Virus record (IMG/VR): IMGVR_UViG_2529293044_000013
Length of the DNA stretch: 4,509 nucleotides
Reading direction: 5' to 3' (one strand)
Source of the DNA: a virus
Taxonomy: Monodnaviria; Loebvirae; Hofneiviricota; Faserviricetes; Tubulavirales
In this document: piece after piece, positions 417 through 2,012 of the stretch
Layout of the letters: every line of letters starts with the position of its first letter
Position numbering within the stretch: position 1 is the first letter of the stretch
The notes under the pieces: generated by a model
What the model was told of the DNA's origin: nothing
The model's database searches: none
What the model saw: only the letters and a program-made list of their open reading frames with translations
Translations under genes and position numbers: made by a program

Positions 417-2012
417 TCAAGACCGAAGAACAATAAAGAATGAAAGCATGGAGCCAATCAGCGTCATAATCACCCTGAAAGTGGCCCTGACTTCATCGGT
501 ATCAAGCAGCACACAAAAAGTATCCAGTTGATAATCTTTATTCCAGATATTGAATGTAAAGACAGGACACTGCCCCCGTGGAATTGTCAGTGAAAAATCA
601 CGCGCAGAAGGCCACATATTCCACAATGGAGAAATGAATGATGAAGGCTCAGGAGATGAAATATCAGGCGTATCCACTGAAGGTGCAGTGCCAAAGTCAT
701 TTGACACAGTCACGTTAACATTTACCGTAGCATTACCTGTTACAGTGGTACTGCCAGAACCTGTTCCGACTCCAGCTCCTGTACCGCTACCCGTTCCAGT
801 GCCTGTACCCGTTCCAGTGCCTGTACCCGTTCCAGTGCCTGTACCCGTTCCAGTGCCTGTACCCGTACCGCTGCCTGTACCCGTACCGCTGCCTGTACCC
901 GTACCGCTGCCTGTACCCGTACCGCTGCCTGTACCCGTACCACTGCCTGTACCCGTACCGCTGCCCGTACCTCCAACGGGCTTAAAACCGGGGTCAATAA
1001 CAGGAGGGGTATATTTACCTCCAGAATTGCTGGTATCACCACCTGGTGTCGGAGGAATAGCAATAACACCAGATTCTGTAAAACTTGCAGAATCACCGAT
1101 GCGGAGGTCTACCGTAGAACGATAATTGTCTACGTCAGCAGAGGAATATTTCAATAAAAACGAAGATATCCCGCGATATTCAGAGAGGCCATCTAATTGT
1201 TCAGTCAGCCCGTTAAGAATATCTGCAATATCCTGAGATGCCAGATTATTTCCAGAGAAAGATGGCACGTGGAGAGACGATGAGAATGGATTTTCAGTGG
1301 TTGCTGCCTCGCAAGTAGAATTACCATCAGAATAAAACAGAACCTGACCGTTATCACAAAAAACAGAATCCTCACTTAACGTTACTGACCAGAATACAAA
1401 CGAACTCTGGGACCAGGAACCTCGAAAATAATAAGCGTAGTAGAATCTGTACCACTCATTATCAACGATACTCTTCGGAGGAGTATAATAAGACGACTGA
1501 AGCGAGGCTTTATCTTCAGGAGGTAAGCACTGAATAACCCGCGCAGCAGCAGAAAACGGCGAAGTACTGGTAACGTAGCAATTATCAAACCCGCCATGCC
1601 AGGCCTTGACACCCGCACTCATGGCTGGAGTGTAATAAAACGCGTTATAGCCGTTTTTATCTAAAACCAATTTTGCCACCTCCTCAGCAAAAGGTTTTCC
1701 TGCGGCATAAATTCCAAGACTGACTGTAGTTACACCAAGACCGTAAGCCAGAGTACTCCACGACATTGCTGAAGCAGAAATCCCGGCAGATGCAGCATAA
1801 TTTGATGCAAAAGACGCTGCCGCACGTGAATATCCTGATAACGTTGCCGAAATAGATGAGGCGCTGGCCCCCATTGCAGATAATTTGCGATTAATAATAC
1901 CGGACAATTCAGAAGAAAATGTTGTGGTAGTCAGTGTCGCTGTTTCAGCACAGGCGTGATTTGTTAACAAAACGTACAATAGCGACACAGAAATATTTTT
2001 CAAAAAACTCAT
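417..2012 (-). CDS. pIII-like minor coat / adsorption protein (531 aa): signal peptide, N-terminal domains, Gly-Thr/Ser linker, C-terminal membrane anchor
   Basis: Longest ORF in the window. N-terminal signal-peptide-like [22 protein letters not shown]. Multiple Cys in the N-terminal part. Long (GTGSGT)n linker at ~aa 340-420. C-terminal hydrophobic segment [26 protein letters not shown] upstream of the ATG at 2012. Domain layout and position match the inovirus pIII architecture; the N-terminal domain sequence itself is not one I recognise. Confidence 0.8.
787..966. repeat. Tandem array of ten 18-bp units inside the pIII-like gene, encoding the Gly-Thr/Ser linker
   Basis: Directly readable. 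Plus-strand units: gtacccgttccagtgcct at 805-822, 823-840, 841-858 (787-804 differs at one base); gtacccgtaccgctgcct at 859-876, 877-894, 895-912, 913-930; single-base variants at 931-948 and 949-966. On the minus strand these encode GTGTGT and GSGTGT respectively. Confidence 0.9.

Follow-up and report, generated by a model that had tools for sequence, protein, structure and literature searches.

A length-polymorphic in-frame 18-nt tandem repeat encodes the Gly-Thr/Gly-Ser linker of a pIII-like protein in filamentous prophages of Escherichia coli

The 4,509-nucleotide (nt) stretch of viral DNA in IMG/VR record IMGVR_UViG_2529293044_000013, referred to here as the window, carries part of a filamentous phage (inovirus) prophage of Escherichia coli. 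Its longest open reading frame (ORF), at positions 417..2012 on the minus strand, encodes a protein of 531 amino acids (aa) that resembles pIII, the adsorption or minor coat protein of filamentous phages, in gene position and architecture. The N-terminal and C-terminal domains of this protein are separated by a low-complexity linker of 72 aa, composed of Gly-Thr and Gly-Ser, that is encoded by near-identical 18-nt units arranged head to tail. The number of these units differs between copies of the prophage that are otherwise nearly identical, and the array is therefore a coding variable-number tandem repeat, or in-frame minisatellite. We consider it very likely that the array encodes a flexible tether in the protein at the gene III position, a presumed adsorption protein, and that whole units are gained and lost.

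The linker array and its variation in length

A search of the whole window with Tandem Repeats Finder returned a single strong array, located at 788..971, with a period of 18 nt, 10.2 copies, 96% matches, no indels, and a score of 270. Bounded by conserved anchors, the full tract occupies 759..974 on the minus strand and contains 216 nt, which when read in the frame of the 417..2012 gene form 12 units in the order G-C-A-A-A-A-B-B-B-B-E-F and encode the 72 aa of the linker. The tract begins with a single edge unit, GGTGSG (974-957), followed by a block of five TGTGSG units (ACGGGTACAGGCAG[C/T]GGT; 867..956), four of them identical and one with the synonymous codon AGT for AGC, and a block of four identical TGTGTG units (ACGGGTACAGGCACTGGA; 795..866). 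It ends with the edge units TGSGTG (794-777) and AGVGTG (776-759), bringing the total to five TGTGSG units, four TGTGTG units, and three degenerate edge units. A preliminary description of the window had recognised two homogeneous blocks on the plus strand, with six gtaccgctg-type and four gttccagtg-type units, and the in-frame reading matches it. The choice of codons varies along the unit (ACG GGT ACA GGC AGC GGT), yet it repeats unchanged from one unit to the next. Mean pairwise identity of the units is 0.834, compared with 0.697 +/- 0.014 and a maximum of 0.764 in a null of 5000 draws in which the identical peptide was encoded with codons sampled from the gene's own usage. Because the observed identity lies above the maximum of the codon-resampled set, the likeness of the units at the DNA level exceeds what is needed to encode a flexible linker, as had been proposed.

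We compared the array in 48 complete copies of the gene, drawn from 35 sources that comprise complete genomes (23 of the 35), draft contigs, and IMG/VR contigs; the allele counts rest on public assemblies. In each copy the array was cut between the conserved anchors, and the remaining 1380 nt of the gene served as its flank haplotype. Array length ranges from 180 to 324 nt, or 10-18 units, with 26 DNA alleles in 12 lengths, whereas the flanks form 21 haplotypes with no more than 17 pairwise differences. More than one array is found in six of the eight flank haplotypes that occur in at least two sources. Among copies with zero differences in the flanks, one group has arrays of 13, 14, and 14 units (GCCCAABDBBBEF, GCCCAAABDBBBEF, and GCCCAABDBBBBEF), a second has 10, 16.3, and 18 units, and a third has 14 and 15 units. 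Even pairs of prophages with two or fewer differences over 7.2 kb still differ in unit number, and several pairs from these groups have just two differences over that length. Copy number is thus not constant among related prophages, and the expectation that linker length would vary is borne out.

Across the alleles the TGTGSG block comprises 3-9 units and the TGTGTG block 1-9 units, and the degenerate edge units hardly vary at all (unchanged in 22 of 23 and 23 of 23 alleles). Multi-unit duplications are present in three alleles, and two alleles have a 6-nt offset. Each of the 12 array lengths is a multiple of 6, and nine are also multiples of 18; neither a frameshifted allele nor an allele of fewer than 10 units was found among the 48 copies. 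With every length divisible by 3, changes in length preserve the reading frame, which had also been anticipated from the 18-nt unit.

Distant relatives of the 531-aa protein retain a low-complexity tract at the matching place, after a conserved motif and before the C-terminal domain. The homologue in L024 has a 42-nt unit in 3.7 copies (97% match), that in L043 has GTGTTT seven times, encoded by an 18-nt unit in 7.6 copies (95% match), that in L042 has about 38 GT dipeptides, and the lineage represented by protein cluster P0002 has long GT tracts of differing lengths. In the 221-member family defined by the C-terminal domain, the tract that precedes this domain is low in complexity and varied in composition, being G/S/T-rich, T-rich, or, further out, P/T/N/D-rich. 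Among the representatives examined, which include P0128, one family member carries a collagen-like repeat (PF01391). Because the units are near-identical within a lineage but different between lineages, the tract appears to undergo ongoing turnover and not to be a frozen linker. A linker that is conserved while its DNA is homogenised lineage by lineage reads as the signature of concerted evolution by continuing turnover of units. Together with arrays that vary where the flanks do not, this pattern agrees with the initial view of a dynamic repeat shaped by slippage or recombination.

Architecture and genomic position of the pIII-like protein

The 531-aa protein begins with a signal-peptide-like segment (aa 1-22, followed by ETA; 1947..2012, minus strand), which was read from the translation. 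This segment is followed by an N-terminal domain of ~325 aa (aa 23-346), the linker (aa 347-418), and a conserved C-terminal domain of 113 aa (aa 419-531; 420..758, minus strand). The C-terminal domain comprises a conserved motif, a Cys-flanked beta-hairpin, and a terminal hydrophobic helix ending in RS; the helix is predicted to span residues 88-112 of the domain, with the end ...FFIVLRS. An AlphaFold2 model of the domain, built from a 6-sequence alignment and of low confidence (mean predicted local distance difference test score, pLDDT, 53; predicted template modelling score, pTM, 0.25), places a beta-hairpin between two conserved cysteines and a long terminal helix after it. The C domain of pIII from phage f1 is likewise laid out as a beta-hairpin and then a long helix (PMC10175506). 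The family to which the domain belongs consists of 221 cluster representatives, and the domain is nearly always C-terminal in proteins of 400-600 aa. Matches of the 531-aa protein to PHROG families are confined to its C-terminal part, and Pfam and NCBIfam returned no family for the protein or for ten of its relatives, save for the collagen repeat of one relative. In a word-indexed protein collection, the full-length query was swamped by Gly-Thr low-complexity matches and a C-domain profile gave just seven short fragments. Scanning of species-representative genomes with C-domain alignments added no member, the first alignment being too divergent and the second giving 35 pattern matches of which none was confirmed.

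In intact copies of the prophage, taken from complete E. coli genomes, the gene order is coat-like gene, 56-aa ORF, 531-aa gene, DUF2523 gene, Zot gene, and secretin gene, which corresponds to the order VIII, III, VI, I, IV in M13. The 531-aa gene lies between the coat-like gene and the DUF2523, Zot, and secretin genes, and therefore occupies the position of gene III. The label "pIII-like", which the preliminary description had applied, is supported by gene order and by the architecture of the protein as read from its sequence; it does not extend to significant sequence similarity with pIII of the Ff phages, and homology to that protein is unproven.

The prophage is ~7.9 kb long, and 27 of the 5426 complete E. 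coli genomes carry it. It occurs in two forms. The first adjoins hipA, often in tandem, at a site that we take to be the dif region since hipA lies near dif. The second has a backbone with an IS110-family transposase, a 667-aa GPA-type replication endonuclease, and a phospholipase D protein, and was found in L002, L004, L007, L010, L011, L015, L017-L019, L027, and L028. Copies with this second backbone are inserted at three chromosomal sites, hcxB/ybiB, leuO/ilvI, and yahK/yahJ, a pattern suggesting that an inovirus in E. coli integrates with the help of a transposase. An identical 531-aa protein is present on both backbones. A different inovirus occupies the same hipA-adjacent position in L024 (GCA_902839905.1 contig, 4610..13074); its gene II is of the Ff type (G2P_X_C), its homologue of the 531-aa protein shows 38% identity, and its secretin gene is followed by a TraX-family gene.

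Origin of the length variation

In the explanation that we favour, units of 18 nt, and at times 6-nt sub-units or multi-unit blocks, would be gained and lost, with replication slippage and/or unequal recombination between units as the likely cause. These two processes, which cannot be separated here, provide the most economical account of the alleles. Such turnover would keep the units near-identical within each lineage and let the length of the tether vary, between 60 and 108 aa in this lineage, without the frame ever being broken. The tether would link a variable and presumably receptor-binding N-terminal domain to the conserved C-terminal domain, which would hold the protein in the inner membrane and also, on the model of the Ff phages, in the tip of the virion. 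Flexibility of the linker and its role as a tether are likewise proposed by analogy with Ff pIII (PMC10175506).

Several results weigh against this explanation. Searches of the PDB, with phmmer for the whole protein and with hmmsearch for a clean C-domain profile, found no pIII and only low-complexity or chance matches. Alignment with hhalign to M13 pIII placed the SPLxN ... Cys-hairpin-Cys region in register, but with a non-significant E-value of 0.1 and a probability of 0.6%, and a profile of ~150 family members scored 7.3 bits against the last 85 residues of the M13 protein, a value equalled by one of ~1000 shuffles. The structural model of the C-terminal domain described above is itself of low confidence. 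The sense strand of the array folds no better than shuffled sequences (z=-1.3), giving no sign of a structure that would promote slippage, and hairpin-promoted slippage was rejected on this ground. In 10 of 11 genomes the tandem copies of the prophage have identical arrays, which argues against very fast turnover: the rate of unit change appears to lie well above that of point substitution, yet to be moderate and not hypermutable. In the remaining genome, strain RIVM_C037166 (L003), the tandem copies of the gene at 17001..18668 and 24768..26381 have 16 and 13 units and otherwise differ, over ~7.2 kb, only by eight substitutions clustered within the N-terminal domain, 494-808 nt upstream of the array. 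This difference looks like the result of recombination with another phage and not of simple slippage, with the exchanged patch falling in the presumed receptor-binding domain. Finally, natural linker-length variants of phage IKe were without selective advantage, and a longer IKe linker without effect on fitness, according to Bruno & Bradbury 1997 as cited in PMC7307601.

The difference between the L003 copies is also what would be expected if the tract were mainly a recombination joint, at which N-terminal domains are swapped onto a conserved C-terminal domain and length variation arises as a by-product of exchange between co-resident or tandem genomes. In a comparison of the window gene with that of the P0002 lineage (L031, L039, and L040), DNA identity is ~65% upstream of the array, ~92% downstream of it within the gene, and ~97% beyond the gene, and because of this jump the tract also marks a mosaic boundary. 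A joint of this kind would further fit proteins from Salmonella that combine an unrelated N-terminal part with the same linker-plus-C-domain layout, as well as the sharing of one 531-aa protein by two phage backbones. However, the arrays of the two lineages differ in codons and in period, so that a crossover inside the present arrays is not directly visible, and the jump in identity could also mean that a receptor-binding domain diverges faster. Many of the differences, moreover, involve a single unit in phages that are identical on both sides of the array, for which slippage is the simpler explanation. We regard a recombination joint as an unlikely main explanation for the tract. When we asked whether the sister lineage might be CUS-1/YpfΦ, the N-terminal domain of the P0002 lineage had no match in complete E. 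coli genomes, and the gene of the L042 type had matches in only two of them, at 84-85% identity.

A selective explanation, in which the length of the tether is adaptively tuned to reach a receptor through surface layers or pili of the host and the array acts as a contingency locus for host range, appears less probable still. It could account for the wide spread of lengths that is maintained, for the lack of alleles below 10 units, and for the conservation of a low-complexity linker throughout the family, and the same possibility was raised for the gene III protein (g3p) of the UPΦ prophages (PMC7307601). On the other hand, length showed no association with host or backbone, although no search aimed at one was made, a single 12-unit allele is shared by the two backbones and by several strains, the longer linker of IKe had no fitness effect in the work cited above, and neutral drift of a tolerant linker fits the data equally well. 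One could go further and picture the array as a functional variability module, in which unit number would set receptor reach and host range and the array would also be the preferred crossover point for domain swaps, as a built-in device for diversifying host range; we find this combined proposal a little more doubtful again.

Short-read assemblies evidently break at the array. In a large protein collection the gene is represented mostly by "partial" proteins that end 3-10 residues into the array or start in its distal end, including one array-truncated fragment found on 11 contigs, and this bears out the earlier suspicion of trouble in such assemblies. Hundreds of "partial hypothetical proteins" in clusters P0001 and P0002 stop or start at the array. 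The protein of the window is recorded on at least 10 contigs, and an exact look-up in the clustered protein collection returned no full-length variant. Although these failures would be in keeping with differences in copy number that are artefacts of assembly or sequencing around a stable linker, such an origin is highly improbable: most of the counts rest on complete genomes, the arrays differ only by exact multiples of 6 or 18 nt with no frameshift, and the tandem copies agree in nearly all genomes. Identical alleles also recur in independent assemblies (L017 and L018; L013 and L014; L008 and L009; and the window with L025, L029, and L030).

Two further ORFs overlap the array, an antisense ORF at 550..1125 on the plus strand whose translation is a PV repeat, and an alternative-frame ORF at 740..1096 on the minus strand with AVRVQA repeats. 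Both had been described as artefactual products of the array. Both exist and are best treated as artefacts, the first of composition and the second of the stop-free array, as indicated by a test for stop-free frames and, for the antisense ORF, by comparison of lineages. The array lacks stops in five of six frames, but 360 nt of the plus-strand ORF lie outside it, and the array is therefore not the sole cause of this ORF, having lengthened it without creating it alone. That one of the two is a real gene served by the repeat is the least credible of the explanations considered, despite the 360 nt that remain open outside the array, since a (GGN-ACN)n sequence is free of stops in nearly every frame, the antisense span shifts in frame and length between lineages, the PV and AVRVQA repeat products match no family, and the sense ORF encodes a domain that is conserved across a family.

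The prophage in the window and comparison with known systems

The genes on the minus strand of the window make up an inovirus module, with a Rep_trans initiator, a 111-aa protein (PHROG 14411), small ORFs, the coat-like gene, the 56-aa ORF, and the 531-aa ORF. The gene for the Rep_trans-type replication initiator (3096..4165, minus strand; Pfam PF02486, E=1.4e-21; PHROG 453) lacks its first 127 nt. The major coat protein-like gene (2322..2570, minus strand) encodes 82 aa from its ATG and matches PHROG 2186, a virion structural protein, with E=2.9e-14, while its match to Pfam Phage_Coat_B is below threshold. Just 3' of the coat-like gene, at 2281..2303 on the minus strand, GGGCGGATATTCCGCCC followed by TTTTTT resembles an intrinsic terminator, as is found after gene VIII of the Ff phages; it is absent from the list produced by the consensus scan. 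A megablast search of the window against 50,697 phage records gave matches to IS100 only.

The copy of the prophage in the window is a defective remnant, and the array there is consequently a relic. A 1301-bp deletion, with its junction at 258|259, took out the Zot/pI-like gene completely, together with the 3' half of the DUF2523 gene on one side and the first ~88 nt of the secretin gene on the other. As judged from alignment to the intact copy in L001, what remains of the DUF2523 gene, at the position of pVI, is the 5' 141 nt (259..399, minus strand), next to an internal fragment of the pIV-like secretin gene (1..258, minus strand) that is 100% identical to L001 15110-15367. At the other end of the window, rep is interrupted 127 nt into its coding sequence by the insertion sequence IS100 (IS21 family), whose left end, with the start of istA, occupies 4166..4509 on the plus strand. 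Neither the deletion junction nor the IS100 junction was found in the 5426 complete E. coli genomes. Further decay is seen elsewhere in this prophage family: in two Hungarian isolates (L013 and L014, about 1941..5329) one tandem copy has its secretin gene interrupted by the IS21-like element ISEc62, and in strain 100117 (L019, 6004..7263) the secretin gene is split.

Coding repeats of this kind have counterparts outside filamentous phages. The Ser-Asp "R region" of the staphylococcal proteins ClfA and Sdr is built from 18-bp units that encode a dipeptide repeat, is polymorphic in length between strains, and forms a stalk that projects a binding domain from its anchor; it differs from the linker described here in belonging to a bacterial cell-wall-anchored adhesin, in its Ser-Asp composition, and in its much longer arrays. 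The Thr-Gly tract of the Drosophila period gene also shows natural in-frame length polymorphism through repeat instability, but in a eukaryotic clock gene and with a documented phenotype of length. With phase-variable contingency loci the array appears to share the generation of heritable variants by repeat instability at a rate faster than point mutation. Those loci, in contrast, switch on and off by frameshift, whereas the array modulates length with all 12 of its lengths in frame, and the divisibility of these lengths by 3 and 6, together with the lack of frameshifted alleles, led us to reject an on/off contingency locus.

The closest parallels are among the filamentous phages. In M13 (L044) the linkers of gene III are themselves 15-nt tandem repeats, at 1833..1890 (3.9 copies, 95% match) and 2308..2375 (4.5 copies, 90% match), so that encoding by near-perfect DNA repeats is common to both proteins. 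The pIII proteins of Ff and IKe have a flexible low-complexity tether between the receptor-binding and C-terminal domains, as is proposed for the window protein, and are encoded at the same gene position, and the linkers of Ff pIII are described as flexible tethers (PMC10175506). Ff pIII differs in having two linkers together with N1 and N2 domains where the window protein has one linker, in the (E)GGGS composition of the linkers compared with Gly-Thr/Ser dipeptides, and in a C-terminal domain without significant sequence similarity to that of the window protein. No gene of the UPΦ prophages varies more than gene III, for which 229 genomes yielded 95 protein variants, most of the variation lying in how many GGGES repeats the linker contains (Shapiro & Putonti 2020, PMC7307601). 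The likeness to UPΦ g3p extends to the setting, a filamentous prophage of E. coli or Enterobacterales that is dif-integrated and often in tandem, with its attachment-protein gene as the most variable one. UPΦ, however, has IKe and I2-2 as near relatives and carries a gene II of the Ff type, whereas the window phage has a Rep_trans initiator; its repeat unit is the five-residue GGGES and not an 18-nt TGTGSG or TGTGTG unit, and the window protein has one linker and an unrelated N-terminal domain. Membership of the window phage in the group of UPΦ and Lineavirus (IKe and I2-2) was ruled out by the Rep_trans domain (PF02486), by the TGTGSG/TGTGTG unit, and by megablast matches restricted to IS100.

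Length variation of a gene III linker is thus already known from UPΦ and IKe, and its encoding by tandem repeats from M13, and what is new is the lineage, a putative adsorption-protein family found on Rep_trans and IS110 backbones, and the 18-nt Gly-Thr/Ser unit. In practical terms, the array breaks short-read assemblies, spawns spurious ORFs, and leaves truncated database entries, and it also provides a high-resolution marker for typing that separates otherwise identical prophages. These observations extend linker repeat variation in gene III from Ff, IKe, and UPΦ to a seemingly unrelated, putative adsorption-protein family of at least 221 sequence clusters, and they suggest that a disordered tether of adjustable length may be a general design feature of inovirus adsorption proteins.

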